A DNA stretch of 64,000 bases from Arcicella sp. (GTDB taxonomy: Bacteria; Bacteroidota; Bacteroidia; Cytophagales; Spirosomataceae), in contig JANXML010000158.1 in the NCBI GenBank assembly GCA_025354645.1, positions 19,316 through 83,315 on the forward strand. The letters run 5' to 3'. The notes under the pieces were generated by a model. That model had not been told where the DNA came from, made no database searches, and saw only the letters and a list, made by a program, of their open reading frames with translations. The translations under genes were made by a program, and so were the position numbers. Shown piece after piece: positions 3,901 to 61,686 of the stretch (its first letter is position 1; each line of letters opens with the position of its first letter).

Positions 3901-3928
3901 TGAATTCTGAATGTTGAATTATGAATTA
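3901..3928. repeat. Heptamer tandem array (TGAATTN x4)
   Basis: TGAATTC TGAATGT TGAATTA TGAATTA between lpxK and the porin gene. Confidence 0.7.
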
Positions 3929-3951
3929 CTACGCCTTCGAGTGCCTCTGTT

Positions 3952-5001
3952 TTAATTATGAAGGGTATTCTTGTTTATGTTTGAGAGAACCAACTTGTCA
4001 AAGTTTGCCTTCATTTCTTCATTTAAAAATTTAATTTCAATTGGCAAATAATATAATTCGATTCCTATTAATAAATCATTATTCAAAAATGGAATAAATT
4101 TTACCATATCTTTTTCAGTCATCAAAATAACCGTTCCAGGTTTAATATTTTGATTTTTAATTTTTGCAATATCATTTTCAGTAAAATCATGATGATCTCT
4201 GAATATCAGGTGGTTAACTACCTCAAACTGAGTATTTGCATACATTTCAAATTGTTTAGGATTTGCAATACCTGATAATAAAATTGCCTTTTTAAAATCA
4301 TTATTTCCTAATTCTGAACGACAATTTTGAGGTTTTCCGTACATTATCTTTGTAAAAATTAAAAACGTATTTTCAGTTAAATATGGACGAATTTTTTTTT
4401 CAATTTCACCTTGCATTTTATCAGACAAATTCTCGGGACATTTCGTAATTATTATTGCATCCGCTCTTTTTGCCCCATGTCTTCGCTCACGTAAACGCCC
4501 CGCAGGAAAAGTAAAGTCTTCATAAATTGGTCTGGAATAATCTATTAGTAGCAAATTTAAAGAAGGTTTTATGGCTCGATGTTGAAAGGCATCATCAAGA
4601 ATAATTATGTCATTGTTGAATTTTTGTTTTATTATTTCACGAACCGCTTCAACTCTATTTTCACCTACTGCAATGTCAATTATATCATTGAATTTTTGAA
4701 AATATTGGTAAGGTTCATCGCCAATAGTTTGAGCATTTGCATCGGAATCAGCTATGATAAATCCTTTGGTTTTTCTTCCATAACCTCTACTTAATGTCGT
4801 GAGGCTATATTTATCATTCAATAATCGAATCAGATATTCAACATGAGGGGTTTTTCCAGTGCCGCCAACCGTCAAATTTCCAACATTTATTATCGGAAAA
4901 TCAAAACGATATTCTTTCCAAAAACCTTTATCATATAAGTAATTACGAACATCAGTAACGATTCCATATAAAATTGAAAAAGGTAAAAGAAAATATTTCA
5001 T
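3952..5001 (-). CDS. lpxK: Tetraacyldisaccharide 4'-kinase
   Basis: VGNLTVGGTGKTP, LSRGYGR, GDEP, LDDAFQH, PAGRLRE, MTEKD. Confidence 0.97.
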   Translation of the reverse strand: MKYFLLPFSILYGIVTDVRNYLYDKGFWKEYRFDFPIINVGNLTVGGTGKTPHVEYLIRLLNDKYSLTTLSRGYGRKTKGFIIADSDANAQTIGDEPYQYFQKFNDIIDIAVGENRVEAVREIIKQKFNNDIIILDDAFQHRAIKPSLNLLLIDYSRPIYEDFTFPAGRLRERRHGAKRADAIIITKCPENLSDKMQGEIEKKIRPYLTENTFLIFTKIMYGKPQNCRSELGNNDFKKAILLSGIANPKQFEMYANTQFEVVNHLIFRDHHDFTENDIAKIKNQNIKPGTVILMTEKDMVKFIPFLNNDLLIGIELYYLPIEIKFLNEEMKANFDKLVLSNINKNTLHN

Positions 5002-5032
5002 TAAGTTTTAAAATTGATAATTATATTCAAAT

Positions 5033-5067
5033 ACTGTTTACTGATAACTGTTCACTGATAACTGATC
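5033..5067. repeat. Heptamer tandem array (ACTGWTN x5)
   Basis: ACTGTTT ACTGATA ACTGTTC ACTGATA ACTGATC. Same unit family as the array inside mutS at 37378-37412. Confidence 0.8.
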
Positions 5068-5305
5068 AACTACCGTTTAATAAAAAAATATGAATTACGT
5101 TACAAAATTCAGAAAGAGTTGCGACTTTTTAGTATATTCACACCCCTTTTAAGAAACTTTAACGCCCTTACTTTCAGTAAAAGTTTCCTCCCAATTGCCT
5201 AACGCACATAAAATCAGACGATTAATTATTTATTTTAGCTATTATTAATAAAATCATAACCTTGATTTTATATCCCAATACCCCTAACCAAATAGGATTT
5301 TTAAA

Positions 5306-6400
5306 ATGAGTCTCAAAGCTGTCTTTACAAAACATACACTGGATTTTAAATTCGAGGCAGGAACGTCTCGGGGCGTACTCACGCATAAAGATAGTTACTT
5401 TGTTAAGATTTTTGACCACGAAAACCCTTCTGTCTTTGGTTTAGGAGAATGTTCCCCTTTAAAAGGATTAAGTATTGACGATCGTCCTGATTTTGATTTG
5501 CAATTACTAAGTATTTGCGAAAATTTTAATACACTCGATTTAGAAGTTTATCCTTGGAATTTGAATATAATCCTTGACCAAGTACTTGACAAAACTTTCC
5601 CATCCATCGTTTTTGCCTTCGAAACTGCCATGCTTGATTTAATGAATGGGGGTAAAAGAGTCGTTTTCAACAATGCTTTTGCCAAAGCCGAACGAACAAT
5701 TAATATCAATGGTTTGGTGTGGATGGGTAATCGAGATTTTATGCTGAAACAAATTGATGAGAAATTAGAATCTGGATATGATACGATAAAAATGAAGGTT
5801 GGGGCAATAGATTTCAAAAAAGAATGTGAAATTTTAGCTTACATCCGTGACCGCTATGATGAAAGTAAAATTACGCTCAGAGTGGATGCCAATGGTGCAT
5901 TTTCAATTCATGAGGTCTTATCTAAACTTCAAAAATTAGCTGAATTCAAACTTCATTCTATCGAACAACCCATCAAACAAGGTAATGAAGATTTGATGGC
6001 AGAACTTTGTCAGAATACACCCGTACCAATTGCTTTGGATGAAGAATTGATTGGTGTTCGTGAATATACCGATAAATATAAATTATTGAAGAAAATCATG
6101 CCTCAATATATCATTTTGAAACCTACGCTTGTTGGTGGTTTTCAGCAATGTAGAGAATGGATTGAGAATGCTAACCGCTTGAAAATTGGTTGGTGGATGA
6201 CATCCGCTTTGGAATCGAACGTTGGATTAAATGCGATTACTCAATTTACTGCCGAATTTAATAATATCATGCCCCAAGGACTTGGAACTGGACAATTATA
6301 CCACAACAATATCCCATCTCCGCTTGAAATTAGAAATGGGAAAATCTTTCACAATGCTCAAAATCCTTGGAATTTAGGAGTTTTGGAATTTTTGGTTTGA
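5306..6400 (+). CDS. menC: o-succinylbenzoate synthase (enolase superfamily)
   Basis: FEAGTSRG, KMKVG, RVDANG, SIEQP, ALDEEL, ILKP, TSALESNVGL. Confidence 0.9.
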   Translation: MSLKAVFTKHTLDFKFEAGTSRGVLTHKDSYFVKIFDHENPSVFGLGECSPLKGLSIDDRPDFDLQLLSICENFNTLDLEVYPWNLNIILDQVLDKTFPSIVFAFETAMLDLMNGGKRVVFNNAFAKAERTININGLVWMGNRDFMLKQIDEKLESGYDTIKMKVGAIDFKKECEILAYIRDRYDESKITLRVDANGAFSIHEVLSKLQKLAEFKLHSIEQPIKQGNEDLMAELCQNTPVPIALDEELIGVREYTDKYKLLKKIMPQYIILKPTLVGGFQQCREWIENANRLKIGWWMTSALESNVGLNAITQFTAEFNNIMPQGLGTGQLYHNNIPSPLEIRNGKIFHNAQNPWNLGVLEFLV

Positions 6401-6569
6401 GTTTTTTTTGTTGTATCACAAGATTGCATGCCTTCTAATCTGAATCCAAATACGTGAATCAATTCTATATTACTTTAAAAATTCACAAAATAAAAACCCC
6501 TCAAATCTTTGTCTTTAAGTCAGTAGTTTGCAAATTTGCAAAAACAAACCATCGAAAAATCAAATTTCA

Positions 6570-6986
6570 ATGAATATTCAAGCACTTGACAAAGACCTTA
6601 TTTCTTTATTTGAAAAAAGAGTAGCATTAAGCCAAATGGGCTATGATCATCGTGATTATGATGATGTAGAAGAAGTACTACACGATTTAGAAGATGATTT
6701 CAATGAGAAATATGGCAGTTATTTAGAAGGCGTTCTTTCAGATATACATAAAGAATATTGTCCAGAATCTGACGTTTTATTACCAACTGCCTACTTGGCA
6801 AAATCTTTCAAAGAAACTGCCGACGGTGGAATTGAAGTAGGAAAAGATGCAGGAGTTTTAGTTGAATTGGAAGCCGACCCAGATGCAAAAGCAAAATTGA
6901 TTCTATTACCAACGCCAACTCGTATTGTTTTGCAGGTTGGGAAAAAGAAAAATATTGTTTGGGAAGCCGAAGAAATTGATTTTTAA
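6570..6986 (+). CDS. Acidic hypothetical protein
   Basis: Clean ORF with likely start at ATG 6570 (MNIQALDK); no recognisable family. Confidence 0.7.
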   Translation: MNIQALDKDLISLFEKRVALSQMGYDHRDYDDVEEVLHDLEDDFNEKYGSYLEGVLSDIHKEYCPESDVLLPTAYLAKSFKETADGGIEVGKDAGVLVELEADPDAKAKLILLPTPTRIVLQVGKKKNIVWEAEEIDF

Positions 6987-9903: not shown

Positions 9904-9938
9904 ACTCATAACTAACAATCAGTTACGAATAACTAATC
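9904..9938. repeat. Degenerate heptamer array
   Basis: ACTCATA ACTAACA ATCAGTT ACGAATA ACTAATC between the two barrel genes. Confidence 0.4.
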
Positions 9939-9939
9939 T

Positions 9940-14939: not shown

Positions 14940-17543
14940 TTATTTTATCGTTGAATCAGGTTTTGCGTCCGCTGGTCGAATCGGAGGCAAAACAATGGAA
15001 TCAGGACGAACGTAAGTGCTGTCATAATAAAGTGTATCAGCTCTTGGAATATAAGCAGAGGTACATGTAAATTCCTTATTAATTCGCTTCGGATCAAGTT
15101 TTTCAAACGGAACGGGATGATATGCTTCTAAACTCGGGTCATTCACAATCTTGGTCATGTATCGTCCAAAAAGAGGTAAGGCAGATTTTGCTCCTTCGCC
15201 ATATTGACCACTTCGGAAATGAATCGAACGGTCATCACCTCCAACCCAAGTTCCCGTAACTAAATTACTTGTCAAACCCATATACCAACCATCTGAATGA
15301 TTTGAAGTTGTTCCTGTTTTTCCTGCAAATCTTGATTTATAGCGATCTTTTCCTCCAAATAAGTCTTTAAATGACCATAAATTCTGCGAAGTCCCGCCTT
15401 GTTCTTCCAAACCACCCTCCAACATATATCGCATCAATTGAGCAGATTCTTTTCTGATTGCCGTGCGACGTTGAGGCTCAAAAGTGAAAATTATATTCCC
15501 ATTTCTATCCTGAATTTCAACCACCAACATCGGCTCGGTGAAAACGCCTTCATTTAAAAAACAACCGTAAGCACCCACCATTTCTAAAAGTGTAACATCA
15601 TTTGAACCTAATCCAATGGATGCCACAGGAGCAATTGGGCTTTTGATTCCCATTTGTTTTGCATACCAAGCAACCGTGTCAGGACCAACTTCATCCGTTA
15701 ATCTGGCAGCACATGAATTAATTGAACGTGCCATTGCTCTTCGTAAAGACATGGTTGCATAACTGAATCGACCATCCGCATTTTGTGGTCGCCATATCTT
15801 TTTCTCGCCATTTTCTTCATATTCTTTTTCAAAAGGAGCATCCTTAATTTGAGAACATGGCGACATATCCTTAGGTCCATCAATGGCGGCTGTATAAACA
15901 AAAGGTTTAAAAGTTGACCCAGGTTGCCGACGCCCTTGGCTGACGTGGTCATATTTGAAATACTGAAAATCAAGTCCCCCAACCCATGATTTAATATGTC
16001 CCGTGAATGGATCCATTGACATCATACCAGCTTGCAAGAAACGTTTATAGTAAACAATTGAGTCGTAAGCACTCATCGTTTTTTGTTCTTCACCCGCTCC
16101 ATTACGTGAATAAACCCACATTTTTCGCTTCACATTTTTCATGTAATGCCAAATAGAATCTGAATTATTCTGGTATTTCTTAGCCAAAAATCTATAATAC
16201 CCTGTCCTTTTCGCCACTGTATCCACAAATCCAGGAATTTCAACGCCCTTTTCATCCGCCCACGGATTTTTGCCCGACCATTGATTATCAAAACTTTTCT
16301 GTAAAAGCTTCATTCCATCTTGCACAGAAGTTTCTGCATAGGCTTGCATACGAGAATCAATGGTAGTTTTAATTATCAGACCATCACGATATAAATCCAA
16401 ATCTACATCACTGGAATCTGCCCATTTTTCCAAAGCTCGGGCAACGGCAGTTTTAAAATAATTACTCGTGCCGTCGTAAGGCGTTTCTTCGTTTACTTTT
16501 AAAACGATTGGCAATTTTATCAGTGATTCATATTCATTCTTTTTTAAATAATTATACTTCAACATTCTTGACAAAACCGTATTCCGTCTTGCAAGAGATT
16601 TTCCGTAATTTCTTCTTGGATTATACGTATTTGTCGCTTTTTGCATACCCACCAAAACCGCTGCTTCTTGCACATTTAAACTATCAGGAGAAGTATTAAA
16701 ATAAGTCTTTGCCGCCACTTTTATTCCGTAAGAATTACTGCCAAAATCAACCGTATTCAAATACCACAGAATGATTTCTTCCTTTGTATAATAACGTTCT
16801 AATTTAACGGCGGTAAGCCACTCTTTCGTCTTGATTACCAGCGTTTTAACTCCTGGAATATAAGCCAATAATCCTTTTTTTTCAATTCCTTCTTTCTTGC
16901 GAGTCTTAAATAAATTTTTCGCTAATTGTTGTGTAATTGTGCTACCTCCCCCACGCTCACTTGCACCAGTAACAACACCAAATGCAACACCAAATAATGC
17001 CCTAAAATCAATGCCAGAATGTTGATAGAAACGTGAATCTTCGGTTGCAACTAAGGCTTTTACTAAATAAGGAGAAAGTTCATCATAATTTTTAACGGGC
17101 GTTCTATTTTCCAAGAAATATTTTCCCATTAAAACGCCATCAGCAGAATAGATTTCAGAAGATTGTGATAATTTAGGATTTTGAAGTTCCCCAACGGATG
17201 GCATTTCACCCGTGAGGTATAAGAAGTTTGTGTTAATACAAAATAGATAGAAAAAACCTGCAAAAACTGTCCAGCCAAAAATTTTCCAATATTTTTTAAT
17301 TCGATTAAAATAGGTAGAATCCTTATCAATTCGCTGAACTACGGCATTTTTTACCTTACCTTTTGTATCCCAATAAGTGTCTTTTGCAACGTCAAGTTTT
17401 TTATACAAAGTGGCTACTTTCTCTTCTCCAAAGATTTTTACCAGCAAAATATCTAACTGAAACCAAATCCAATGTAAAGCATTTGAAATAGTAATTTTGA
17501 GGTTAATCCAAAGATTTTGAATGAGTTGCTTTATTTTGTCCAT
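14940..17543 (-). CDS. mrcA: Class A penicillin-binding protein (PBP1A; transglycosylase + transpeptidase)
   Basis: EDSRFYQHSGID, GGSTITQQLAKNL, QPGSTFKP (SxxK), SIN (SxN), GKTGTT. Confidence 0.9.
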   Translation of the reverse strand: MDKIKQLIQNLWINLKITISNALHWIWFQLDILLVKIFGEEKVATLYKKLDVAKDTYWDTKGKVKNAVVQRIDKDSTYFNRIKKYWKIFGWTVFAGFFYLFCINTNFLYLTGEMPSVGELQNPKLSQSSEIYSADGVLMGKYFLENRTPVKNYDELSPYLVKALVATEDSRFYQHSGIDFRALFGVAFGVVTGASERGGGSTITQQLAKNLFKTRKKEGIEKKGLLAYIPGVKTLVIKTKEWLTAVKLERYYTKEEIILWYLNTVDFGSNSYGIKVAAKTYFNTSPDSLNVQEAAVLVGMQKATNTYNPRRNYGKSLARRNTVLSRMLKYNYLKKNEYESLIKLPIVLKVNEETPYDGTSNYFKTAVARALEKWADSSDVDLDLYRDGLIIKTTIDSRMQAYAETSVQDGMKLLQKSFDNQWSGKNPWADEKGVEIPGFVDTVAKRTGYYRFLAKKYQNNSDSIWHYMKNVKRKMWVYSRNGAGEEQKTMSAYDSIVYYKRFLQAGMMSMDPFTGHIKSWVGGLDFQYFKYDHVSQGRRQPGSTFKPFVYTAAIDGPKDMSPCSQIKDAPFEKEYEENGEKKIWRPQNADGRFSYATMSLRRAMARSINSCAARLTDEVGPDTVAWYAKQMGIKSPIAPVASIGLGSNDVTLLEMVGAYGCFLNEGVFTEPMLVVEIQDRNGNIIFTFEPQRRTAIRKESAQLMRYMLEGGLEEQGGTSQNLWSFKDLFGGKDRYKSRFAGKTGTTSNHSDGWYMGLTSNLVTGTWVGGDDRSIHFRSGQYGEGAKSALPLFGRYMTKIVNDPSLEAYHPVPFEKLDPKRINKEFTCTSAYIPRADTLYYDSTYVRPDSIVLPPIRPADAKPDSTIK

Positions 17544-17588
17544 ATTAAGCTTATTTGTGTATCTAAAATAATGGACAATTTACGAATA

Positions 17589-17700
17589 AAGTTTAAGAAG
17601 TTTAAGAAGTTGAAGAGTTATAAAGTTAGAGAGTTACAAGTCTTCATCTTTTAACCCTACGACTCTTTAACTTTTTAACCCTATAACTTTTCAACTTTAA
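17589..17700. repeat. Paired inverted octamer-repeat cassette
   Basis: Left arm AGTTANAG-like units at 17589-17640; right arm YTNTAACY-like units at 17648-17700. Confidence 0.75.
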
Positions 17701-17704: not shown

Positions 17705-18178
17705 TCATTTCTTAACAAAACTCAGCGAAGCCGAATTCATGCAGAAACGTTTTCCAGTTGGCTTTGGACCATCATCAAAAACGTGACCCAAGTGGGCTCC
17801 ACAACGATTACACAACACCTCATCACGTGACATTCCCAGAGAATTATCACTTGAAATTAAAATGTTTTCTTTCTTTACAGGAGCGTAAAATGAAGGCCAA
17901 CCCGTTCCAGATTCAAATTTCGTATCGGAACTAAACAATTCTTGCTTACAACAAACACAATCGTATTTTCCTTTTTGGTGATTATCCCACGTATCACCTG
18001 TGTAAGGACGTTCGGTACCTTTCTGACGAGTAACGGTGTATTGTTCAGGTGTTAATTGCTTTTTCCACTCCATTTCCGTTTTCACTACCTCAAATTTTTT
18101 GGGCTTATCTTGTTGAGTATAACTACTACAAGCGAAAATAATAACTGCAATAAATAAAATTACTCCTAAATTTTTCAT
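17705..18178 (-). CDS. msrB: Peptide-methionine (R)-S-oxide reductase, lipoprotein form
   Basis: Lipobox IFAC; [38 protein letters not shown]. Confidence 0.95.
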
Positions 18179-18406: not shown

Positions 18407-18491
18407 AGAGAGCTGGCAGAGTGGTCGATTGCGGCAGTCTTGAAAACTGTTGACTGTAACAGGTCCTGGGGTTCGAATCCCTAGCTCTCTA
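18407..18491 (+). tRNA. tRNA-Ser (anticodon TGA), long variable arm, CCA not encoded
   Basis: Acceptor stem AGAGAGC/GCTCTCT; D-arm GGCAGAGTGGTCGATTGC; anticodon stem GCAGT-CTTGAAA-ACTGT; T-arm TGGGG-TTCGAAT-CCCTA. Confidence 0.97.
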
Positions 18492-29518: not shown

Positions 29519-29546
29519 TCAATGAACAATTATCAATGAGCAATCA
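29519..29546. repeat. Heptamer array
   Basis: TCAATGA ACAATTA TCAATGA GCAATCA, just after the stop codon. Confidence 0.55.
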
Positions 29547-29572: not shown

Positions 29573-29600
29573 AAGCCCATTTTTTAATGGGCTTTTTGTT
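29573..29600 (+). terminator. Intrinsic terminator
   Basis: AAGCCCATT/AATGGGCTT plus T-tract. Confidence 0.75.
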
Positions 29601-29728: not shown

Positions 29729-29763
29729 ACCAATAACTAATAACCATTAACTAATCACCAACC
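29729..29763. repeat. Heptamer array abutting the yebC start codon
   Basis: ACCAATA ACTAATA ACCATTA ACTAATC ACCAACC, then A-ATG. Confidence 0.7.
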
Positions 29764-31428: not shown

Positions 31429-31514
31429 AGAAAAGGATTTTAAAGATTATCAAGAACAATAGGATTAGTACTTTTTAATCCTGTTGTTCCTGATAACCTT
31501 TAAAATCCTTTTCT
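31429..31514. repeat. 39-bp inverted repeat (36/39) between convergent truA and T9SS esterase genes
   Basis: AGAAAAGGATTTTAAAGATTATCAAGAACAATAGGATTA, 8-nt loop, then its near-perfect reverse complement. Confidence 0.9.
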
Positions 31515-40398: not shown

Positions 40399-40416
40399 GT
40401 TATTTGGTTGAAAGTT

Positions 40417-40449
40417 AACGCAGGCAGGGTTTTGAACCCTGCCTGCGTT
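40417..40449. repeat. GC-rich perfect 15-bp hairpin (REP-like) inside the operon
   Basis: AACGCAGGCAGGGTT-TTG-AACCCTGCCTGCGTT; no U-tract. Confidence 0.8.
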
Positions 40450-40485
40450 CTCACAATAAATTTAAGAAAATTAAACTTCCCCAAA

Positions 40486-40941
40486 ATGAAAATTGATTTT
40501 ACCGTTAATGGCAATCCCCAAACAGTTGATGTGCCTGAAAATATGCCTCTTTTGTGGGTGATTCGTGATGTTTTGGATATGAAAGGCACAAAGTTCGGTT
40601 GTGGACAAGCGGCTTGTGGATCTTGCACGATTCATATTGACGGTGATGCCGTGCGTTCGTGTTCTTTTGCGGCACAATATGCTCAAAATAAGCACATTAC
40701 GACAATTGAAGGGCTTTCAACTGCTGAAAAATTACACCCCGTTCAACAGGCTTGGATTGAGGAAATTGTGCCTCAATGTGGGTATTGCCAGCCAGGTTTT
40801 ATGATGTCAGTAGCTAATTTACTGGATAAAATACCAAATCCTACCGATGAAGAAATTGATGACTATATCACGAATATTTGTCGTTGTGGAACGTATTATC
40901 GTATGCGAAAAGCCATTCATCGGGCAGTTCAACTGAAATAA
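40486..40941 (+). CDS. 2x[2Fe-2S] small subunit (IorA/CoxS-like)
   Basis: [36 protein letters not shown]. Start at ATG 40486. Confidence 0.93.
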
Positions 40942-40942: not shown

Positions 40943-41179
40943 GATGTTCGTTTTTCGATGTTCGATGTTCGATGTTTGGGATTCGATGTCCGTTTTCGAT
41001 GTTTGGGATTCGATGTTCGATTTTTGATGTTCGGATTATCAATATTTAGAAACGTAAATAATATCAAATAACAAACATCGTAAACTCGAATATCGAAAAA
41101 CAAACATCGAAACTCTAATATCGAAAAACGAATATCGAAAACTCGAACATCTAACATCGAAAAACAAGCATCGAAAAAA
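40943..41179. repeat. Large paired inverted heptamer cassette (GATGTTC / GAACATC)
   Basis: About 13 GATGTTC-like units (40943-41032), ~40-nt spacer, about 15 GAACATC-like units (41073-41179). Confidence 0.92.
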
Positions 41180-44963: not shown

Positions 44964-45092
44964 TAATTAGTTGTTAGGTGTTATAAATTAGTTTTCAAAT
45001 CGTTGATTAATGAAATAAATTTGTTTTAAAATAGTTGATAATTAGAGTTTTACAATTATTTTTTACCAATAACCGATAACCAATAACTAATT
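44964..45092. repeat. Degenerate paired heptamer cassette
   Basis: Weak left arm TTAGTTG TTAGGTG; right arm ACCAATA ACCGATA ACCAATA ACTAATT (45065-45092). Confidence 0.5.
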
Positions 45093-45154
45093 ACTACTAA
45101 ATATTCGGTTCTCGTTTCTTATCTTTACCACCATAATTAATTTTAAGTTTAAAT

Positions 45155-45523
45155 ATGAAAAAAGTCTTAATTGCCGAAGATAGCTCTGTTATTCAAAACC
45201 TTGCTAAGAAAATATTAGAATTTCAGAACTTTGAAATTCATTCAGTAAAAAATGGTCAGCAAGTATTAGATGCTCTTGAAAAAGAAGATTTTGATATTCT
45301 ATTGCTCGACATCAATATGCCCGTGATGGACGGAATGGAGTGTGCAAAAGCCGTTCGTGGGTTGAAAGATGAAAAGAAAGCGAAATTGCCAATGATTGCT
45401 ATTACTGGTAATGCCCGCAACTATTCAATGGACGATTTTAAAGAAGCGGGTTTTGACGATATGTTGGCAAAACCATTAAATTTCGATGCCTTAGTGGCAC
45501 AAGTTAAAGCCTTAACGGAATAA
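45155..45523 (+). CDS. Single-domain response regulator (CheY-like)
   Basis: IAEDS, LLDINMPVMDG, AITG, LAKP. Confidence 0.93.
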   Translation: MKKVLIAEDSSVIQNLAKKILEFQNFEIHSVKNGQQVLDALEKEDFDILLLDINMPVMDGMECAKAVRGLKDEKKAKLPMIAITGNARNYSMDDFKEAGFDDMLAKPLNFDALVAQVKALTE

Positions 45524-45529: not shown

Positions 45530-45666
45530 AGGTATGAGATATGAGGTTGTAGGTATGAGGTAGTAAAAATAAGGTATTAAAAAATTGCAGAAAATGAAAA
45601 TTCTGTAATTTTTGCCTAAAACTTCACATCTATGACCTCATACCTTATACCTACAACCTCATATCT
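45530..45666. repeat. Paired inverted heptamer cassette (AGGTATG / CATACCT)
   Basis: Left arm AGGTATG AGATATG AGGTTGT AGGTATG AGGTAGT; the right arm contains the exact reverse complement ATACCTACAACCTCATATCT. Confidence 0.88.
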
Positions 45667-45672: not shown

Positions 45673-46437
45673 ATGCAAATCACCTTCTTAGGCACTGGTA
45701 CATCGCAGGGCGTTCCCGTAATTGCCTGTGGATGCGAGGTTTGCCAATCCCTTGATTTTCGAGATAAAAGACTTCGAGTTTCCATTCACATTGAAGTGGA
45801 TGGAAAAAGTTTTGTTGTGGATACAGGTCCCGATTTTAGACAGCAAATGTTGCGTGAAAGAGTTAAAAATGTTGATACAATTCTGTTTACCCACGAACAT
45901 AAAGATCATACTGCTGGATTGGACGACGTGAGAGCCTATAATTTTTTCCAAAAACGTGATATGCCTATTTACGCAAGAAAACACGTTTTGGAGCAAATTA
46001 AGCGTGAATTTCATTATGCTTTTACGGAAATAAAATATCCAGGAACTCCTCAAATTACTTTAAATGAAATCGAAAATCAACTTTTTCAAGTAGAAGGAAT
46101 TGATATTTTGCCCATTGAAGTGATGCACTATAAACTACCTGTTTTTGGGTTTCGGATAAAAGATTTTACGTATATAACGGATGTGAATTTTATTTCAGAG
46201 GAAGAACTTGAAAAAGTAAAAGGCTCAAAAGTAGTTGTGATTGGGGCTTTGAGAAAACAAGAACATCTTTCTCATTTTACGCTCTTGGAAGCAGTTGAGG
46301 TTTTAGAAAAAATTGCTCCCGAACAAGCATACATTACACACATAAGTCATCAAATGGGCTTGCATCGAGAAGTCAATGAAGAATTACCAGCATATATCAA
46401 TTTAGCCTACGATGGGTTGGTCATTAATTTAGATTAA
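45673..46437 (+). CDS. MBL-fold metallo-hydrolase (PhnP-like)
   Basis: LGTGTSQGVP...C.C..C, DTGPD, THEHKDH, HISH. Confidence 0.9.
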   Translation: MQITFLGTGTSQGVPVIACGCEVCQSLDFRDKRLRVSIHIEVDGKSFVVDTGPDFRQQMLRERVKNVDTILFTHEHKDHTAGLDDVRAYNFFQKRDMPIYARKHVLEQIKREFHYAFTEIKYPGTPQITLNEIENQLFQVEGIDILPIEVMHYKLPVFGFRIKDFTYITDVNFISEEELEKVKGSKVVVIGALRKQEHLSHFTLLEAVEVLEKIAPEQAYITHISHQMGLHREVNEELPAYINLAYDGLVINLD

Positions 46438-48598: not shown

Positions 48599-50017
48599 TT
48601 ACAAATCTTTTAAAGCCTCATATACTTTGCTGAATTTCCTAAAATTTTCTTGATATATACGTTGATTGTCTTTATTCGGATAAAATATTTTTTCTTCAAT
48701 ATCGTGATGATTGGTTTGTAAGTTTAAAGCCATAAATCCAATAAGAACAGCTCCCCAAGCTGAACCTTCAACTTTTTGAGAGACTGCCACTTTCATTTGA
48801 AAAATATCAGCAGCAATCTGTAACCAAACATCATTTTTTGTAAATCCTCCACTCGCCATGATGATGATTTGTTCCCGTTCTTTTTGAATTGGAAGTAATA
48901 TTTCAGTTATACTCCAAAGTCCGAATAAAATTCCTTCGAGTGTTGCACGAATGAGATGGGCTTTTGTGTGATTTATGGTGATTCCGAGGAGAGTTCCTTT
49001 TACGGAGGCATCCCAAATTGGTGCCCTTTCTCCCAATAAATATGGCACAAATATTAATCCGTTGGAACCTGCAGGAGCATTTTGGGCTTGTAAAATTAAT
49101 TCATCAAACGATTCATTGGTATGCAAAATGGATTCTTTTAACCATTGCAATATGATGGCACCATTATTAACAGCTCCTAATGTAAGATACTGACTATCAA
49201 CGAGATGATAACACTGAGTTCTCATTTTTGCATCAATAAATGGTTTCTCAATCGGCAAGCGAACGGCTCCGCTTGTACCAATCGTCAAGGACATTCTACC
49301 TTTTTTCATAGCTCCTGTTCCCAAATTTGCCAAAGCTCCATCTCCCCCTCCCAAAATTAAAGTGTGATTTTTTGTTAGACTTTTAGCTGTATGAGTTGGC
49401 GAAACAACCGTAGAAAGTTTATCCCGTGAAATGCCTAAATGATTCAAAATTTGTTCATTCCAACATAAACATTCAATATTCAACATTCCAGTACCAGAAG
49501 CCAATGAAGAATCAATCACATATTCCCCTGTAAAATGATGCCAAATATACTCTTTCAAACTGATGAACTTATACGTTTTTGCGAAGATTTCGGGTTCATT
49601 TTCTTTCAACCAAAGAATTTTGGTCATCGGGCAAAATGTATGAATTGGAATACCTGTTTTTTCGTAAAATTGTTTGCCTAAATCACTTTCTCGCAGGTTT
49701 TGGGCAATTTCGGAAGCTCGATTATCAGCCCATAGAATTACATCAGTCAGCGGTTTTCCGTTAGTGTCAATAGCGATAAGACTTTGCATGGCGGCACTAA
49801 AACTGATGAATTGAGGCGTAATTTTATAGGTTAAATTTTCGATACAATCAACAACAGCCTTCAAAACAACGAATGGTTTTTGAATGCTCCAATCGGGTTT
49901 AGGATGGTGCATTTCGTAGCTAATACACTGATAATCAACCACTTTCCCTTCTTTGGTAAAAACCATAGCTTTCGTTGCGGTCGTCCCAATATCTATGCCT
50001 ATATAAAATTGATTCAT
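48599..50017 (-). CDS. gntK: Gluconokinase, FGGY family
   Basis: GIDIGTTATK, SAAMQS, TGIPIH, GDGALAN, TIGTSGA, PYLLGERAP, SGGF. In an operon with gnd and gntP. Confidence 0.88.
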   Translation of the reverse strand: MNQFYIGIDIGTTATKAMVFTKEGKVVDYQCISYEMHHPKPDWSIQKPFVVLKAVVDCIENLTYKITPQFISFSAAMQSLIAIDTNGKPLTDVILWADNRASEIAQNLRESDLGKQFYEKTGIPIHTFCPMTKILWLKENEPEIFAKTYKFISLKEYIWHHFTGEYVIDSSLASGTGMLNIECLCWNEQILNHLGISRDKLSTVVSPTHTAKSLTKNHTLILGGGDGALANLGTGAMKKGRMSLTIGTSGAVRLPIEKPFIDAKMRTQCYHLVDSQYLTLGAVNNGAIILQWLKESILHTNESFDELILQAQNAPAGSNGLIFVPYLLGERAPIWDASVKGTLLGITINHTKAHLIRATLEGILFGLWSITEILLPIQKEREQIIIMASGGFTKNDVWLQIAADIFQMKVAVSQKVEGSAWGAVLIGFMALNLQTNHHDIEEKIFYPNKDNQRIYQENFRKFSKVYEALKDL

Positions 50018-50029
50018 TGAGTAAATATT

Positions 50030-50200
50030 GGAACGCAGATGACGCAGATGCCTTCGGCAACGCAGATTTACGCAGATTTTAATTTTGTGTGTCCATAAAC
50101 TAATTTACAGTAAATCAAATTTTGAACAATTGGAAACCTAATAATTTTCAAAAAATTTGTGAAAATCTGCGTTGCGAAGCATCTGTGTCATCTGCGTGCC
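50030..50200. repeat. Paired inverted nonamer cassette (ACGCAGATN)
   Basis: ACGCAGAT at 50033, 50042, 50060 and 50070; ~40-bp near-perfect inverted arm at 50162-50200. Confidence 0.9.
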
Positions 50201-50211
50201 ATTTTACAGTT

Positions 50212-51108
50212 TTATTTTTTTTCAACCGCATGACCGCCAAATTCATTTCTTAACGCAGCCACTACTTTTCCTGAAAAAGTATCGGTCATTTGGGAACGGT
50301 AACGCATCATTACTGACATGGCAATCACGGGCGTTGGTACACCTAAATCTAATGCTGTTTCCAACGTCCATTTTCCTTCTCCAGATGAGTGCATGATGCC
50401 TTTTATGGTATCTAAATTGGGGTCTTTTGAAAAAGCATTTTCAGTTAATTCCATCAACCAACCTCTCACCACTGAGCCATGATTTAACATTTTGGCAGTT
50501 TTTTGAAAGTCAATATTAAATTCTGAATGTTCAAAAACCTCAAATCCTTCGGCAATTGATTGCATCATTCCGTATTCAATTCCGTTATGAACCATCTTTG
50601 TGAAATGACCACTTCCTGCTTCGCCTGTGTGCAAGTATCCGTCCACAACTGAAATATCTTTGAATACTTTTTCAACGTACTTAAACACTTCGTCGTCTCC
50701 ACCAACCATCGTGCAGGCACCTTTCAATGCTCCCGATGTTCCTCCCGAAGTTCCACAATCCAAAAAGTCTAATGATTTGGTTTTAAGATAGTTATACCGT
50801 TTTTTGGAATCTTTGTAATTTGAATTTCCCCCATCAATAATGATGTCATGAGGATTTAGAAAGGGTATTAATGATTCAATCACATCATCCACAATTTTAC
50901 CCGCAGGAACCATTAACCAAATCACTTTTCTTTTCGTTAATTGCAGGCATAAATCTTGAATAGAACGTGCAATTTTGATGTTTTCAGCGGCTATATTCTG
51001 AATAAAATCTGTATTGACATCATTAGCAATTACTTCATAACCATTTCTTTTAAAATTTAGGGCAAGATTAAAACCCATTTTACCCAATCCAATTATTCCT
51101 ATTTGCAT
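50212..51108 (-). CDS. gnd: 6-phosphogluconate dehydrogenase, decarboxylating, short (GntZ-like) form
   Basis: IGLGKMG, WLMVPAG, IDGGNS, DCGTSGG, KMVHNGIEYG, SGEGKW, RNEFGGHAV. Confidence 0.95.
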   Translation of the reverse strand: MQIGIIGLGKMGFNLALNFKRNGYEVIANDVNTDFIQNIAAENIKIARSIQDLCLQLTKRKVIWLMVPAGKIVDDVIESLIPFLNPHDIIIDGGNSNYKDSKKRYNYLKTKSLDFLDCGTSGGTSGALKGACTMVGGDDEVFKYVEKVFKDISVVDGYLHTGEAGSGHFTKMVHNGIEYGMMQSIAEGFEVFEHSEFNIDFQKTAKMLNHGSVVRGWLMELTENAFSKDPNLDTIKGIMHSSGEGKWTLETALDLGVPTPVIAMSVMMRYRSQMTDTFSGKVVAALRNEFGGHAVEKK

Positions 51109-52849: not shown

Positions 52850-52887
52850 AAAATATGCGTTGCGAATTATCTGAATCATTAGCGTAC
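52850..52887. repeat. Decayed solo copy of the nonamer cassette arm
   Basis: 30/38 identical to 50162-50199, same orientation, in the susC-susD spacer. Confidence 0.65.
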
Positions 52888-56236: not shown

Positions 56237-57115
56237 ATGAATCCATTTATACTGTACCAAGAAAAGTCAAAGGAATTAGCGACTTTTCCGTACATTATTG
56301 AGTTTGCCAATCATAAAATTCAACATATTCAACTTCATTCTCAGGAAATAAAACGCAGTAAAGGCATTAAAATTTGTTTTATTACAGAAGGAAAATTTGA
56401 CTGGAATATCGACGGACAGCAATATTTGCTTTATCCAAATGACACTTCTGTGACTTGTCCTTGGCAAATGATTGGTGGAAATAGAGGCGTTTTTGACATT
56501 GGTTCTTTGATGTGGATAACGATTAAACCACAAGTTTTTGAACAAAATGGCGAATTAATTTTGGGAGAGTGGAGTGGTATTTCTGAAACTGACCAACGAG
56601 TAATTGGTAAAATTTTAACCCTCAATAAAAAACCGATTTTAACCCGTTTGAAATCTTGTCAACAAATTTTCCAAAACCTGGAAATGGAATTTTATAACAA
56701 AGAATTAGGCTATCGAACTCGGATAAATCATTTAATTGATGAACTTTTAATTACGGCTATAAGACATTTAAGCAAGCAAGATAACCTCAGAAGGGACTTT
56801 CCGCAGACATTTTTAAAATTAGAACAAACCCTTAGAAATAATTTGTCTGACCCTTGGACGGTTGAAGAAATGGCAGGTTTAGTAGGCTTAGGAACAACCG
56901 CTTTCACGGAAAAAGTTAAGGCATTTTCAGGCTTTTCACCCTTAAATTATTTGATAAATATTAGAATTTCGGAAGCTATTAAATTACTCAATAGAAAAGA
57001 TTTGAGCTTGACAGACATTGCCTTAGAAACAGGGTTTTATTCATCCCAACATTTTTCCTCAACATTCAAAAAACTCACAGGTTACACGCCTCGGGAATTT
57101 AGGAAAAAAGAGTAG
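56237..57115 (+). CDS. AraC family transcriptional regulator
   Basis: C-terminal double HTH: WTVEEMA...IRISEAIKLL...LTDIALETGFYSSQHFSSTFKK..G.TP. Confidence 0.93.
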   Translation: MNPFILYQEKSKELATFPYIIEFANHKIQHIQLHSQEIKRSKGIKICFITEGKFDWNIDGQQYLLYPNDTSVTCPWQMIGGNRGVFDIGSLMWITIKPQVFEQNGELILGEWSGISETDQRVIGKILTLNKKPILTRLKSCQQIFQNLEMEFYNKELGYRTRINHLIDELLITAIRHLSKQDNLRRDFPQTFLKLEQTLRNNLSDPWTVEEMAGLVGLGTTAFTEKVKAFSGFSPLNYLINIRISEAIKLLNRKDLSLTDIALETGFYSSQHFSSTFKKLTGYTPREFRKKE

Positions 57116-57208
57116 GACAGGTTTCCAACCTGTTTTAAAAACTTTGAACTGACAGGTTAGAAACCTGTTTAAAAAACTTTGAACTGACAGGTTAGAAACC
57201 TGTCCTAC
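57112..57208. repeat. GTAG-type REP doublet with internal 35-bp tandem duplication
   Basis: GTAGGACAGGTTTCCAACCTGT ... ACAGGTTAGAAACCTGTCCTAC; 57134-57168 and 57169-57203 are 34/35 identical. Confidence 0.85.
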
Positions 57209-57218
57209 TTAAAAAAAT

Positions 57219-58739
57219 ATGGATTGTCTTCTTACTATCGACATCAATACATCAGCAGTCAAAATTCACGCATTTGATATGAATGGACGGGTAATTTGCT
57301 GGAAAAAAGGCTCGTACCCAACCTTTCACCCACAACCAGATTACAGCGAACAAGACCCCGAACAAATATTTATAACAACTTTATACATCCTTAAAAATCT
57401 CTTGAATGAGCATATTCATCCGAAAAAATTTAAGGTTAAAGCCATCTGTTTCAGTTCGTCCATGCACAGCGTTCTTCCAGTCGATAAAAGTGGCAATCCG
57501 CTTGGTAATGCCATTATTTGGGCGGATAATCGAGGTGTAAAAGAGGCTGAAATATTGAAGAAATTACCACAACATGAAAGCATTTTTCATACAACGGGAA
57601 CGCCTATTCACCCGATGTCCCCATTAATAAAAATCTCTTGGTTAAAAAATCATGATAAAGAAAGGTTTGCTCAAACCTATAAATTTATTTCCGTTAAAGA
57701 ATACGTGATTAAACAATTAACGGGTGAATATGTAATCGATCACAGTATTGCATCTTCGACAGGGCTTTTTGATATTCATAAACTCAAATGGCATCAAGAA
57801 TCCCTCAATTTTGCAGGAATTTCAACGGAAAATCTATCAGAACCAGTTTCGGTTTTTAATGATGATTTAATGCTAAAAAAAGAATATTGTGTAACCTTAG
57901 GCTTATCTCAGAAAACTAAATTAATTATTGGTTCAAGTGATGGCTGTTTGGCAACTCTGGGAGCAGGAATTATGGGCGAAGGAAAAGCAACCATTACCAT
58001 CGGTTCAAGTGGGGCTGTGAGGGTTGCAGGCAGACAAGTTTTAAGAGACGAAAAGCAACGGTTTTTCAATTATTTGTTAACAGATGGTTACTATATTTCG
58101 GGTGGTCCAACCAACAATGGAGGAGTAGTCTTTGAATGGTTTGCAAGACAATTTGGCGATTTTTCGGAGGGTTTAGAATTTGACGACGTTTTGAATGATT
58201 TGTTTAAAATAGCCTCTCAGGTAAAATTAGGAGCAGATGGACTATTATTTTTGCCTTATTTATTAGGAGAAAGGGCACCACTCTGGAACGCAAATGCTCG
58301 TGGAATGTATTTCGGATTGAATATTAATCACGAACAAAAACATTTTGTGCGAGCAACGTTGGAAGGCATTTTATTTGAAATATACAGCATCGGGAAAATT
58401 CTTGAAACGCATCGAAATTTTGAAGATATTTATATTAATGGTGCCTACGCTTCGTTGCCTTTGTGGACTCAAATACTGGCAGATATGTTCGGCAAAACTG
58501 TTCATATTAACGATAATCATGACAGTGTAGCAATGGGTGCTGCACTTTTAGGACTCACAAAATTAGGAATTTATAGTAATTTGGAAGAAGCAGCAACAAC
58601 GGTAAAATCAATTGAAACTTATTATCCGAACCTCAAAAATCATGATATTTACATGAAATATTTCAAGATTTTTGAAAGGTTAAGTCATAAACTTTCCGAA
58701 GATTTTGAGGAGATTGTCTTATTGCAACAAGGTTTTTAA
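57219..58739 (+). CDS. Second gluconokinase-like FGGY protein with atypical ATP-binding motifs
   Basis: TGTPIHPMSP, TIGSSGAVR, PYLLGERAP conserved. DIGT is DINT and SGG is NGA. Confidence 0.8.
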   Translation: MDCLLTIDINTSAVKIHAFDMNGRVICWKKGSYPTFHPQPDYSEQDPEQIFITTLYILKNLLNEHIHPKKFKVKAICFSSSMHSVLPVDKSGNPLGNAIIWADNRGVKEAEILKKLPQHESIFHTTGTPIHPMSPLIKISWLKNHDKERFAQTYKFISVKEYVIKQLTGEYVIDHSIASSTGLFDIHKLKWHQESLNFAGISTENLSEPVSVFNDDLMLKKEYCVTLGLSQKTKLIIGSSDGCLATLGAGIMGEGKATITIGSSGAVRVAGRQVLRDEKQRFFNYLLTDGYYISGGPTNNGGVVFEWFARQFGDFSEGLEFDDVLNDLFKIASQVKLGADGLLFLPYLLGERAPLWNANARGMYFGLNINHEQKHFVRATLEGILFEIYSIGKILETHRNFEDIYINGAYASLPLWTQILADMFGKTVHINDNHDSVAMGAALLGLTKLGIYSNLEEAATTVKSIETYYPNLKNHDIYMKYFKIFERLSHKLSEDFEEIVLLQQGF

Positions 58740-58787
58740 TGGGTAAAAATTTCAATTAAGTTCTAAATAAACTAATTTATAAAAAAT

Positions 58788-58840: not shown

Positions 58841-58854
58841 GTTTCAATCCACTT

Positions 58855-59850: not shown

Positions 59851-60000
59851 ACTAAAATAATAAGGTAATTTTGTTAAGAAAAGGAATATATTAAAAAATT
59901 GAATAATGAATTATCAGTAGAATGCAGTCAAAATAATGCACAATAAACGACCTATGTTTTTAATGACTTATTTAAACCTATTTGACTTTGTAGTTCAATA

Positions 60001-60465
60001 TCAAAAGGTTAGTTCAAAATAAAGCACATCAGAAAGCGGATTATAAACATACGGTTCGGTTTTGACAAAACCTTTTGATTGGTATAGATTAATTGCCTCT
60101 TTTAAGGAAGAAATGGTATCTAATTTCATGGTTTTATAACCTACTTTTTTAGCAAAATCGATTAGTTCTTCCACCAACTTTTTCCCCAAACTTTTGCCTC
60201 TTGCACCAGGACGAACGTACAACCTTTTCATCTCGCAAACCCCTTCTCCAATAGGTTTCAAAGCAATGCACCCTAAAACTTGAGAATGGTCTTTTGCTAA
60301 AATTATGCAACCCATTGGTGGAACATAAACTTGGTGCAAGGTTTCTAACTCTTTCTCGAAATCTTGAAAACTTAAATCAACTTTTAAGAATTCCGCATAT
60401 TCAATAAATATTTCTCTCACCTCTTGCAACTCTACAATCGAATATTTTACGTAATGTAATTGCAT
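60001..60465 (-). CDS. GNAT family acetyltransferase
   Basis: CEMKRLYVRPGARGKSLG, LDT, AINLY...GF. Confidence 0.9.
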   Translation of the reverse strand: MQLHYVKYSIVELQEVREIFIEYAEFLKVDLSFQDFEKELETLHQVYVPPMGCIILAKDHSQVLGCIALKPIGEGVCEMKRLYVRPGARGKSLGKKLVEELIDFAKKVGYKTMKLDTISSLKEAINLYQSKGFVKTEPYVYNPLSDVLYFELTF

Positions 60466-60945
60466 TATGTGATTAATATTTTTTAATAATCAAAGAAGTG
60501 AAAATCATTCAAAAACAAAGAATTACTTTTGAAAATGAAATTACAACAAATATTCCGAACAATCATTTACGACAATAAAATTCATCCCAAGTTTTTAAAC
60601 AATTTGTCGCTCATGGAAAATTCAATATAAACAAAAAAATTTCTTCCGAACATAAAACTATGATTTTTAATTGAGTTAAAATGTGCTGATTAAGAGTTTA
60701 AAATGTATTTTGTCTTAAAAAAGAGTTTCCGAAGAAAGGAAATTTTATAATTTGTCTTTTTCTATAATTATATATAATTCGACATCTTTCGCCAGTTATA
60801 CAAATTTGAAATGTTGAAATATTTAAGTTTATAAATTTTGAAAATACGTTGAAATTGATACAAAAGTGATCGTTTTTTTAATATTTATTGACTCCCATCT
60901 TTCACCTTTTTTACTTTTTCTCTCACTTTTAAACCAAAAATAATC

Positions 60946-60980
60946 TAATTTTGCAGATTCAAAACCTGTCAATCTGACAG
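60946..60980 (+). promoter_or_regulatory. grpE promoter -7 element followed by palindrome CTGTCA-ATC-TGACAG
   Basis: TAATTTTG at 60946-60953; palindrome at 60966-60980. Confidence 0.55.
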
Positions 60981-60991
60981 AAAATCAAGAT

Positions 60992-61594
60992 ATGGCAAAA
61001 CTTTTGAACATCATAGAGAATTATAAAAATAAAGCGAAAAGTGCATTTAAAATGGAAAATAAAGACGAATTGCCAATCGATAGCGAAGAAGTAACACAAA
61101 GTACTGACATTGTTTCAGAAGAAATTGAAACACCAATAGAGGAAGTACCTGAATTGACGGAGGCAGAAAAACTCCAAGCTGAATTGTACGAATTGAAGGA
61201 TAAATATTTAAGACTTTATTCAGATTTTGATAATTTCAGAAAACGTACTGCCAAAGAAAAATTAGAAATGATTCAGTCGGCTTCTGAAAGAGTAATTGTG
61301 GATATAATTCCTGTGATTGACGACATCGAAAGAGCAACTGCAAACGCACAAGAAGGAGAAATTACAGAAGGTATATCTCTGATTTTCAACAAGTTATTCA
61401 ATACGTTGGCAGTAAAAGGTTTAAAAGTGATGGATGCCAAAGGAGCAGTTTTTAATGCTGATTTACATGAAGCCATTACACAATTTCCCGCCCCAACCGA
61501 GGAAGACAAAGGTAAGGTTTTTGATGTAGTTGAAAAAGGATATTTTTTAAATGATAAAGTAATTCGATTTGCAAAAGTCGTAGTCGCTAATTAG
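60992..61594 (+). CDS. grpE: Nucleotide exchange factor GrpE
   Basis: LRLYSDFDNFRKR, IPVIDDIERA, FNADLHEAI, KGY...DKVIRFAKVVV. Start could be the later ATG (MENKDE). Confidence 0.96.
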   Translation: MAKLLNIIENYKNKAKSAFKMENKDELPIDSEEVTQSTDIVSEEIETPIEEVPELTEAEKLQAELYELKDKYLRLYSDFDNFRKRTAKEKLEMIQSASERVIVDIIPVIDDIERATANAQEGEITEGISLIFNKLFNTLAVKGLKVMDAKGAVFNADLHEAITQFPAPTEEDKGKVFDVVEKGYFLNDKVIRFAKVVVAN

Positions 61595-61686
61595 GTTTTA
61601 GGGCTTAGGTTTTAGGGGTTAGTTGTTCAAGTTATTGAATGATTTAACTTTTATCTAAAACCTAATCCCCAACACCTAACCCCTAA
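61591..61686. repeat. Paired inverted heptamer cassette (TTAGGNN / NNCCTAA) between grpE and dnaJ
   Basis: TTAGGTT TTAGGGC TTAGGTT TTAGGGG TTAG ... CTAAAAC CTAATCC CCAACAC CTAACCC CTAA. Confidence 0.85.

Follow-up and report, generated by a model that had tools for sequence, protein, structure and literature searches.

How does a bacterial genome come to hold, between neighbouring genes, inverted repeats that follow a single architectural plan and are each built from a different short unit? The question is posed by a 64,000-nt stretch of the genome of Arcicella sp. (contig C83:19316-83315 of a 5.36-Mb, 392-contig, 36% G+C, 95%-complete assembly), referred to below as the window, in which a preliminary description had pointed out five clear intergenic cassettes and had suggested that they could be emptied insertion sites of a mobile cassette or hairpins processed in RNA. 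We found these cassettes to belong to a large and dispersed set of palindromes, and we assign a probability of about 0.55 to the reading that they are members without a gene in a superfamily of palindromic ('foldback') repeats whose full-length members carry a gene for a four-helix-bundle or a GxxExxY protein.

Cassette anatomy and genome-wide distribution

Tandem Repeats Finder (TRF) and an inverted-repeat finder, applied to the window, recovered all five cassettes at the positions given in the preliminary description, and their design and co-directional surroundings were as described there (Table 1). In every case a tandem array of a 7-10-nt unit is followed by a spacer and then by the reverse-complement array. 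According to the positions of open reading frames (ORFs), each cassette is flanked by two genes of the same direction, and Pfam matches, which agree with the gene names assigned earlier, identify these pairs as msrB/mrcA, the genes for a 2Fe-2S subunit and a Mo-binding subunit (iorA-iorB), a response regulator and an MBL-fold protein, gnd-like and gntK-like genes, and grpE/dnaJ. Cassette edges are found 1-12 nt from the nearest stop or start codon, the sole exception being a 45-nt promoter-like block 5' of mrcA. The five cassettes fold much better than their dinucleotide shuffles (z-scores of the minimum free energy, MFE, from -4.2 to -10.4; Table 1), and MFEs are alike for the sense and antisense strands. 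Within the largest of them (40943-41179) TRF detects a separate 27-29-nt higher-order repeat in each arm, which indicates that the arms grow independently by local duplication, and either arm of the cassette at 50029-50201 contains a GC(C)-TTCG-(G)GC mini-hairpin.

A genome-wide survey covered every TRF array with a period of 5-14. Of these arrays, 216 had an inverted partner no more than 3 kb away, compared with 77 that had a direct partner at an equal threshold, and 167 paired inverted arrays were separated by a gap of less than 200 nt; in total, the genome contains about 170-200 unit-array palindromes in short intergenic spacers. The 167 hairpins are located between co-directional (103), convergent (26) or divergent (13) genes or inside ORFs (3), a mix of contexts that, apart from a deficit of divergent gaps, roughly follows the numbers of the intergenic gaps themselves, and on both sides the flanking ORF is at a median distance of 9 nt. 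Periods 7 (114 hairpins) and 14 (18) together make up 132 of the 167 (79%), and periods 8, 10 and 9 are represented by 13, 10 and 7 hairpins, respectively. Period 7 is also the most common among strong intergenic arrays (232 of ~338), and period 6 was found neither among the 167 hairpins nor among the intergenic arrays.

The rule that the G-rich arm comes first, noticed originally in the window, holds genome-wide and in every gene context: the first arm has more G than C in 127 hairpins and less in 27, and the exceptions are mostly units with equal G and C. Because the first arm of a palindrome is identical from either strand, this polarity reads alike on both strands. It is also seen between convergent (19:4) and divergent (11:2) genes, and a need for A-rich, G-poor leaders before start codons was for that reason rejected as its cause.

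In BLAST searches, the arm of the cassette at 50029 matched 77 loci, that at 40943 matched 48, that at 45530 matched 14 and that at 61591 matched three, whereas the arm at 17589 is unique in its own genome (one locus). The statement that each site has a different unit is therefore correct for the window, but genome-wide the units recur as families. With 76 canonical units used by the 167 hairpins, the system is, as had been proposed, a dispersed one and not a single family of MITEs (miniature inverted-repeat transposable elements). The two largest heptamer families are GATGTTC (at least 16 hairpins and ~31 occurrences in the genome) and AGGTATG (16 hairpins and 28 loci by motif clustering, with loops that differ between copies and the family end TAGGTATGAG). 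TCAGTTA, the complement of the published TAACTGA, is represented by 15 hairpins, and TTAGTTA by nine; the kinship with cyanobacterial-type heptamers suspected earlier is thus borne out by a family that corresponds to a published heptamer.

The ACGCAGAT composite family, which is mostly missed by TRF, has ~58 arm cores of ~50 nt in this genome, with fixed outer ends and the consensus (A/T)TGG(A/C)ACGCAGAT(G/A)ACGCAGAT-GC(C)TTCG(G)GC-AACGCAGATTT(TCGCAGATTT or AAGAGGATTTT), where the closing pair of the mini-hairpin co-varies (GC..GC or AC..GT). Among 47 complete copies the central loops bear no relation to one another, with no more than two marginal 14-nt matches, and the ends of 46 copies show no more direct repeats than do shuffled pairings. 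A classical MITE was rejected on these two grounds, the lack of a target-site duplication and of a shared interior. A 22-nt insert, GAGACTCGCCGTCCGCCTTGAT, occurs in the left, right or both ACGCAGAT arms on contigs C70, C86, C291, C302, C382 and C60 of this genome (G000), which suggests insertion and copying between arms or else a subfamily structure.

Copy numbers differ widely among congeners. There are between 0 and 65 ACGCAGAT arm cores per genome: 58 in G000, 65 in G007, 5-9 in the next relatives (nine in G002) and none in the six species that are most distant. For the GATGTTC dimer, counts per genome within the genus run from 0 to 44. Short-read contigs of several relatives (G007:C304, G007:C776, G030:C385) end in or beside cassettes; the repeats evidently fragment assemblies, so that cassette numbers are underestimated.

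Genes between the arms

Ten genes of the two families are present in this genome, four for GxxExxY proteins (TIGR04256) and six for four-helix-bundle proteins (TIGR02436; two of the six contain stop codons), and all ten are inside or beside inverted unit arrays: eight lie between inverted arrays, one has a complete hairpin directly upstream and one is in a complex repeat cluster. The unit length follows the gene, being 7 nt for all six four-helix-bundle genes and 8-10 nt or composite for all four GxxExxY genes. The suggestion in the preliminary description that arms of this kind often flank such genes in Bacteroidota was therefore well founded, and it holds beyond this genome too.

On contig C177, ACGCAGAT arms like those of the window cassette 50029-50201 enclose the GxxExxY gene. 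Homologues of its product with 85% and 72% identity (G003 and G008, respectively) also have ACGCAGAT arms, those with 67% and 65% identity (G026 and G001) have arms TAGACCACGGATT... and those with 61% and 60% identity (G007 and G009) have arms ATGGCACACGGATTTAACGGATT..., the last two arm types being related yet distinct. At the level of sequence, GxxExxY arms diverge together with the protein within the genus. Outside the genus, we sampled 80 loci encoding proteins 57-85% identical, from Flavobacterium, Brumimicrobium, Draconibacterium, Chitinophagales, Bacteroidales, Methylobacter (Methylococcaceae) and Chloroherpetonaceae. In half of these, the inverted repeats between a locus's own flanks exceeded the 95th percentile of cross-locus controls, and in 55 of 76 loci the CRCNGAT motif occurred two or more times upstream and, inverted, two or more times downstream, against ~0.1 per 200 nt expected by chance. 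Since these non-coding arms are still recognisable at such protein identities, they are constrained together with the gene.

Four-helix-bundle loci have inverted heptamer arms in 30 of 30 cases sampled across the phylum. Each of 25 genus genomes has 1-13 copies of the gene, about one-fifth of them with stop codons. All 30 loci sampled in the genus have inverted heptamer arms, with an own heptamer per copy, and the G-rich arm comes first in 29 of the 30. Loci in G012 and G008 carry GATGTTC arms, that is, the unit of the largest cassette in the window.

We propose that a full-length member of the superfamily consists of a small gene in the loop between inverted arms of tandem short units; gene-less copies far outnumber the gene-bearing ones. 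The elements occupy intergenic spacers of 20-30 nt, mostly within operons, and would multiply in lineage-specific bursts; they can persist genus-wide at one junction and are occasionally lost, halved or replaced. Each arm lengthens or shortens through local tandem duplication. The cognate small protein probably recognises the arm units, because arms and protein diverge together and the motifs are conserved across phyla.

A bolder and distinctly more tentative version is that GxxExxY and four-helix-bundle proteins are sequence-specific readers of their own arm units and form one palindromic system that has no transposase. The GxxExxY protein would in that case also cut the arm units, the proteins would act in trans on gene-less copies, and the class would be parallel to REP/RAYT and Ssn/NTS. 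The period would be set by the protein, 7 nt by a four-helix-bundle ring and 8-10 nt by GxxExxY, and the heptamers of Cyanobacteria, Xanthomonas, Beggiatoaceae and Bacteroidota would make up one system with the 23S rRNA intervening sequences (IVSs). We regard this version as possible rather than probable.

Turnover at orthologous junctions and competing explanations

From 7 to 24 congeneric genomes were viewed per junction, and at none of the five did any of them have an ORF between the arms. A tblastn comparison of the ten passenger proteins of this genome with 111 loops also gave nothing, and the notion of emptied cassettes with gene remnants was therefore rejected; 'gene-less family members' is a better name for the window cassettes than 'emptied sites'.

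At iorA-iorB, the junction is filled in two of the eight genomes with an orthologue, G000 and G005, the latter having a shorter cassette of the same GATGTTC unit, and empty in six of the seven relatives, which have a 21-30-nt spacer; in G000 and G005 alike, the upstream gene has different last codons. The gnd-gntK junction has the ACGCAGAT cassette in G000, G002 and G007, a right-arm remnant only in G001 and nothing in G029. In G013, G034 and G026 it has a drifted ACAGATTTA/ACGGATTAA version similar to the arms of the G026 GxxExxY cassette, and the distant subclade has other hairpins or none. No ACAGATTTA/ACGGATTAA-like arms were found in the flanks of the G013 GxxExxY gene.

Most of 24 genomes have a hairpin at grpE-dnaJ, the six distant ones retaining just a small or weak one (z -0.7 to -2.2), and the unit drifts among species from TTAGGGN to TTAGAGA, ATAGAGA and ATGAATT. 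Arms of the same species fit each other better than arms of different species (mean score 25.7 vs 16.7), so both arms change together. Most congeners have a hairpin at msrB-mrcA as well; several of these hairpins consist of AAGTTNAA units, and those of G029 and G004 have wholly different units at the same spot. The junction between the response-regulator and MBL-fold genes has a hairpin in 19 of 19 genomes, with units of the AGGTATG, TTAGGG, GGTTATT or ATGAATT type. Units have been replaced outright at the latter two junctions. In the closest relative, G007 (contig C361), the AGGTATG cassette gives place to another kind of intergenic palindrome, a GC-rich and unrelated hairpin with the sequence CCCCCTGCCCCCGATGGGGGAG...CCCCCTTCGGGGGTTAGGGGGC. 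Positions 17545-17588, which separate the msrB-mrcA hairpin from the start codon of mrcA, are occupied by a block conserved throughout the genus (CAAACTTTTATCGTAAATTGTC...TTATTTTAGATA) that looks like a Bacteroidota-type promoter, which would place this hairpin between two transcription units and not within one.

Cassettes located between co-transcribed genes would be transcribed into long hairpins and, by analogy with the 23S rRNA IVSs, these would be substrates of RNase III. It might be, then, that hairpins are selected by the host: an mRNA stem that is cut by RNase III or blocks exonucleases would set the ratio of upstream to downstream product, and tandem units would be merely the easiest route for stem growth. 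Such selection agrees with the retention of a hairpin despite sequence change at the last three junctions, with the strong folding z-scores, with the placement of cassettes exactly between stop and start codons and with the RNase III cutting of 23S IVSs of like design (PMC4990558). Selection on transcribed RNA should, however, lead to an excess of sense-strand G·U over A·C mismatches in the stems, and none was found either in 103 co-directional hairpins (174 vs 196) or in 42 sequences of the grpE-dnaJ and response regulator-MBL hairpins (64 vs 64), in a comparison that is blind to selection on both strands or on DNA structure. Selection on sense RNA was rejected for this lack of bias. In addition, polarity and pairing are unchanged between convergent and divergent genes, the arm sequence itself, beyond pairing, is conserved over dozens of unlinked loci and species, copy numbers of congeners range from 0 to 65, and close relatives have empty junctions for which no compensation is visible. 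On balance, we consider host-selected RNA hairpins unlikely. Intrinsic terminators were rejected as well, TTTT following two and AAAA 30 of the 103 co-directional hairpins, and so was a known RNA family: the sole Rfam match in the window at the gathering threshold is a tRNA gene (18407-18491).

Transversions are as frequent as transitions among the stem mismatches. From the strand symmetry of the mismatches and the independent growth of the arms, we infer that arms are kept complementary by a strand-symmetric process at the DNA level, which could be template switching within the palindrome or gene conversion, and not by selection on the sense RNA.

Mutation alone is another candidate explanation. 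Slippage could expand units in AT-rich spacers and quasi-palindrome correction could copy the arms, in which case cassettes would be by-products with no dispersal, protein or function. Higher-order duplications confined to single arms (27-29 nt at 40943-41179), unit numbers that vary between arms and species, strand-symmetric mismatches and the drift of units as a continuum at one site are all in line with this. It fails, however, for a 50-nt composite arm that has fixed ends and a co-varying mini-hairpin at ~58 unlinked places, for the near-absence of the opposite polarity (127 vs 27), for the tight link to two protein families across phyla and for the restriction to periods 7-10, with none of 6, and this makes it improbable.

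Still less credit can be given to arrays that would act as non-B DNA or protein-binding sites, that is, as G-quadruplexes, cruciforms or sites of nucleoid or regulatory proteins, as proposed for the Xanthomonas GGGAATC repeats. The paired convergent arrays of Xanthomonas, with their 83% positional conservation (PMC4692102), offer a precedent, and TTAGGG-type units here could form G-quadruplexes, but most families have 1-2 G per unit (GATGTTC, AGGTATG, TCAGTTA, AATTAAA) and cannot do so, and the use of 76 units makes a single binding protein unlikely. Least probable of all is that cassettes are repair scars, left where a double-strand break in a spacer was followed by templated reiterative addition of units to both 3' ends and then by joining, an event that would leave the G/T-rich strand 5' on either strand and an unrelated filler at the centre: this would account for the strand-symmetric polarity, unrelated loops, missing target duplications, unequal arm lengths, the loss of the spacer and final codons where iorA-iorB is filled and the nuclease gene in some cassettes, but not for composite families with fixed outer ends and internal order in place of free-running arrays or for gradual joint change of arms at one site over long times, and no polymerase or template has been identified.

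The preferred reading, in which the cassettes are gene-less members of a superfamily with gene-bearing full-length elements, has several observations weighing against it. The GATGTTC and AGGTATG families have no gene-bearing copy in this assembly. In G007, with its many ACGCAGAT arms, the only GxxExxY homologue found is the 61%-identical one with different arms (the assembly being 75% complete), and overall there is no clean match between ACGCAGAT copy number and a detected GxxExxY gene, among assemblies many of which are 75-85% complete. No insertion was caught between near-identical strains; mobility is deduced from differences in copy number and from presence or absence among species of 85-95% protein identity. 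The absence of target duplications and of a conserved interior fits no known transposition mechanism, and we know of no transposase-like activity in either protein family. Finally, a host function would agree equally well with the three junctions where all or most of the species sampled have a hairpin, and the mismatch comparison is blind to selection on both strands or on DNA structure.

Related systems and other repeats in the window

Several known systems share parts of this design. The 23S rRNA IVSs of Coxiella and Leptospira have a small TIGR02436/PF05635 gene in the loop of a stem of terminal inverted repeats, and they too lie within a transcribed region; they have been called selfish, their mechanism of spread is described as unknown, and they are cut by RNase III (PMC4990558). 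IVSs, whose inverted repeats are plain, occupy helix 25 or 45 of the 23S rRNA, whereas the elements described here are in mRNA spacers, all five window cassettes being between protein genes, and consist of tandem 7-10-nt units. Moreover, most copies here are gene-less and number hundreds per genome, while RNase III cutting has been shown for IVSs alone. The IVS-type stem around a loop is seen in all five cassettes; the S23p/four-helix-bundle ORF occurs in gene-bearing relatives of the family only and is absent from the five.

REP/REPIN-RAYT systems resemble the present one in their many short extragenic palindromes (here, 167 paired arrays and ~58 ACGCAGAT arms), inverted doublets that form hairpins, a cognate gene bracketed by the repeats, the lack of target duplication and lineage-specific copy numbers. 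They differ in that the cognate gene here is not a Y1 HUH transposase, the arms consist of tandem units, the interiors are not conserved and there are dozens of families in place of one or a few. The arm-flanked genes belong to TIGR04256 GxxExxY and TIGR02436 and not to RAYT, for which no search of the genome was made, and a GTAG/CGTC end tag is absent from the ends of the composite family, (A/T)TGG(A/C)ACGCAGAT, and of the AGGTATG family. Ssn nucleases, GIY-YIG enzymes that cut single-stranded DNA at the repeat, are flanked by NTS/SRM hairpin repeats that also occur as hundreds of gene-less copies beside other genes (PMC11893778). As here (55/76 loci), a small nuclease gene lies between its own repeats, variants of which track variants of the protein (PMC11893778). 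Unlike the single short hairpin motif of Ssn/NTS, the elements described here have a pair of phased unit arrays, known from sequence alone, and their genes do not encode GIY-YIG proteins: TIGR04256 GxxExxY is PD-(D/E)XK-like and the four-helix bundle is non-enzymatic.

With respect to the repeats as such, the closest precedents are the GGGAATC arrays of Xanthomonas, of which there are 70-75 pairs per genome, one array per strand in convergent orientation, between aligned ORFs and with 83% positional conservation between two species (PMC4692102); this orientation appears to be the same as the G-rich-first polarity found here. These arrays and the GGGGA(C/T)T repeats of Nostoc are similarly intergenic, located near stop or start codons of co-directional ORFs, variable in length and transcribed, but there is one unit per genome, read as a G-quadruplex former, and no gene association was reported (PMC4692102), as opposed to the 76 units, most of them unable to form G-quadruplexes, and the cognate-gene link seen here. 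The TAACTGA repeats of Beggiatoaceae, Cyanobacteria and Bacteroidetes, proposed to be sites of a translational regulator, are solo direct repeats with one inverted case in 170 sets (PMC4679880). Like the STRR and TAACTGA repeats, the arrays described here are tandem intergenic heptamers, TAACTGA itself being a large family (15 hairpins), and the TAACTGA-sense array is beside the downstream start codon, as reported for the solo repeats (PMC4679880); unlike these, most high-scoring arrays here (143 of 263) form one arm of an inverted pair.

Paired inverted heptamer arrays in Xanthomonas (PMC4692102) and solo TAACTGA arrays (PMC4679880) are thus already in print. The multi-family version tied to GxxExxY and four-helix-bundle proteins was not found in the searchable literature, which gave no paper linking either protein family to unit-array arms. 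The published descriptions that we consulted of tandem heptamers in Cyanobacteria, Xanthomonas, sulfur bacteria and Bacteroidota give neither a mechanism nor a function, and the four-helix-bundle '23S rRNA IVS protein' and GxxExxY are abundant orphan families. In this genome, heptamers and both families appear as one system with measurable rules of period, polarity, placement, bursts and co-divergence, and both protein families gain a concrete candidate substrate. In practical terms, the junctions of operons, grpE-dnaJ among them, are filled by cassettes, which also interrupt assemblies of short reads; they should be recognised in operon models and by annotation pipelines.

Table 1. Cassettes, solo arrays and other repeats in the window (z, folding MFE against dinucleotide shuffles).
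Position	Strand	Feature	Adjoining genes and distances	Evidence
17589-17700		8-nt unit AAGTTNAG and complement, cassette	msrB (17705-18178, -), 4 nt past stop; mrcA/PBP1a (14940-17543, -), 45 nt before start	TRF; z -4.2
40943-41179		Largest cassette, GATGTTC: array 40943-41036, spacer, GAACATC-type array 41060-41179	2Fe-2S subunit gene (40408-40941, +), 1 nt; Mo-binding subunit gene (41183-43363, +), 3 nt	TRF, inverted repeats; z -10.4
45530-45666		AGGTATG / CATACCT cassette, arms 26 nt, 96% complementary	Response-regulator gene (45155-45523, +), 6 nt; MBL-fold gene (45673-46437, +), 6 nt	TRF, inverted repeats; z -9.9
50029-50201		ACGCAGAT composite-arm cassette: left arm 50029-50080, unique loop, right arm 50152-50201	gnd-like (50212-51108, -), 11 nt; gntK-like (48599-50017, -), 12 nt	Inverted repeats; z -9.9
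61591-61686		TTAGGNN / NNCCTAA cassette	grpE (60992-61594, +), stop overlapped by first unit; dnaJ (61694-62854, +), 7 nt	TRF, inverted repeats; z -4.8
44964-45100		Degenerate cassette, GTTATTGG-like / CCAATAAC arrays	AhpC-like and response-regulator genes	TRF, sequence
31429-31514		Plain 39-bp hairpin, 92% complementary, 8-nt loop	Convergent genes either side	Inverted repeats
52850-52887		Decayed solo right arm, ACGCAGAT family		Comparison with family consensus AAAATCTGCGTTGCGAAGCATCTGCGTCATCTGCGTGCC
3896-3928		Solo heptamer array, AATTATG-like		TRF
5033-5071		Solo array ACTGTTCACTGATA, TAACTGA-related		TRF
29519-29544		Solo heptamer array	Just past stop codon	TRF
29729-29761		Solo heptamer array, C/A-rich	Just before start codon	TRF
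37310-37411	-	Two translated heptamer arrays, AACAGTT x5 and CAAATCC x5 (coding strand)	Inside mutS	TRF, translation

Two further sites had been listed in the preliminary description as weaker cassettes, and neither keeps that status. At the first (given there as 44964-45092), TRF detects the right arm alone (45065-45100) and folding is at chance level (z -0.6); the hairpin at 31429-31514, which is without unit periodicity in TRF, unique in the genome and placed between convergent genes, was rejected as a member of the system. The solo arrays reported at 3901, 5033, 29519 and 29729 and the two in mutS were recovered, but the one at 9904 was not detected by TRF at score 30 and is a weak run by eye.

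The arrays at 29519-29544 and 29729-29761 are mutually non-complementary. Between them, at 29574-29600, there is a terminator-like hairpin with a T-run (AAGCCCATTTTTTAATGGGCTTTTTGTTTTTG), which indicates that canonical terminators coexist with the unit-array elements. The mutS arrays are likewise non-complementary and are part of an in-frame insertion of ~90 aa in domain III of the 961-aa MutS, where the match to this domain is drawn out across residues 285-651. Their units are also those of intergenic repeat families, and BLAST of the mutS segment (37300-37560) matches 14 loci. One more repeat, absent from the earlier list, lies at 57111-57209 between the co-directional genes 56237-57115 and 57219-58739; it comprises 2.5 copies of a 35-nt unit, each with the small palindrome ACAGGTTnnAAACCTGT, and has inverted ends of 23 nt.

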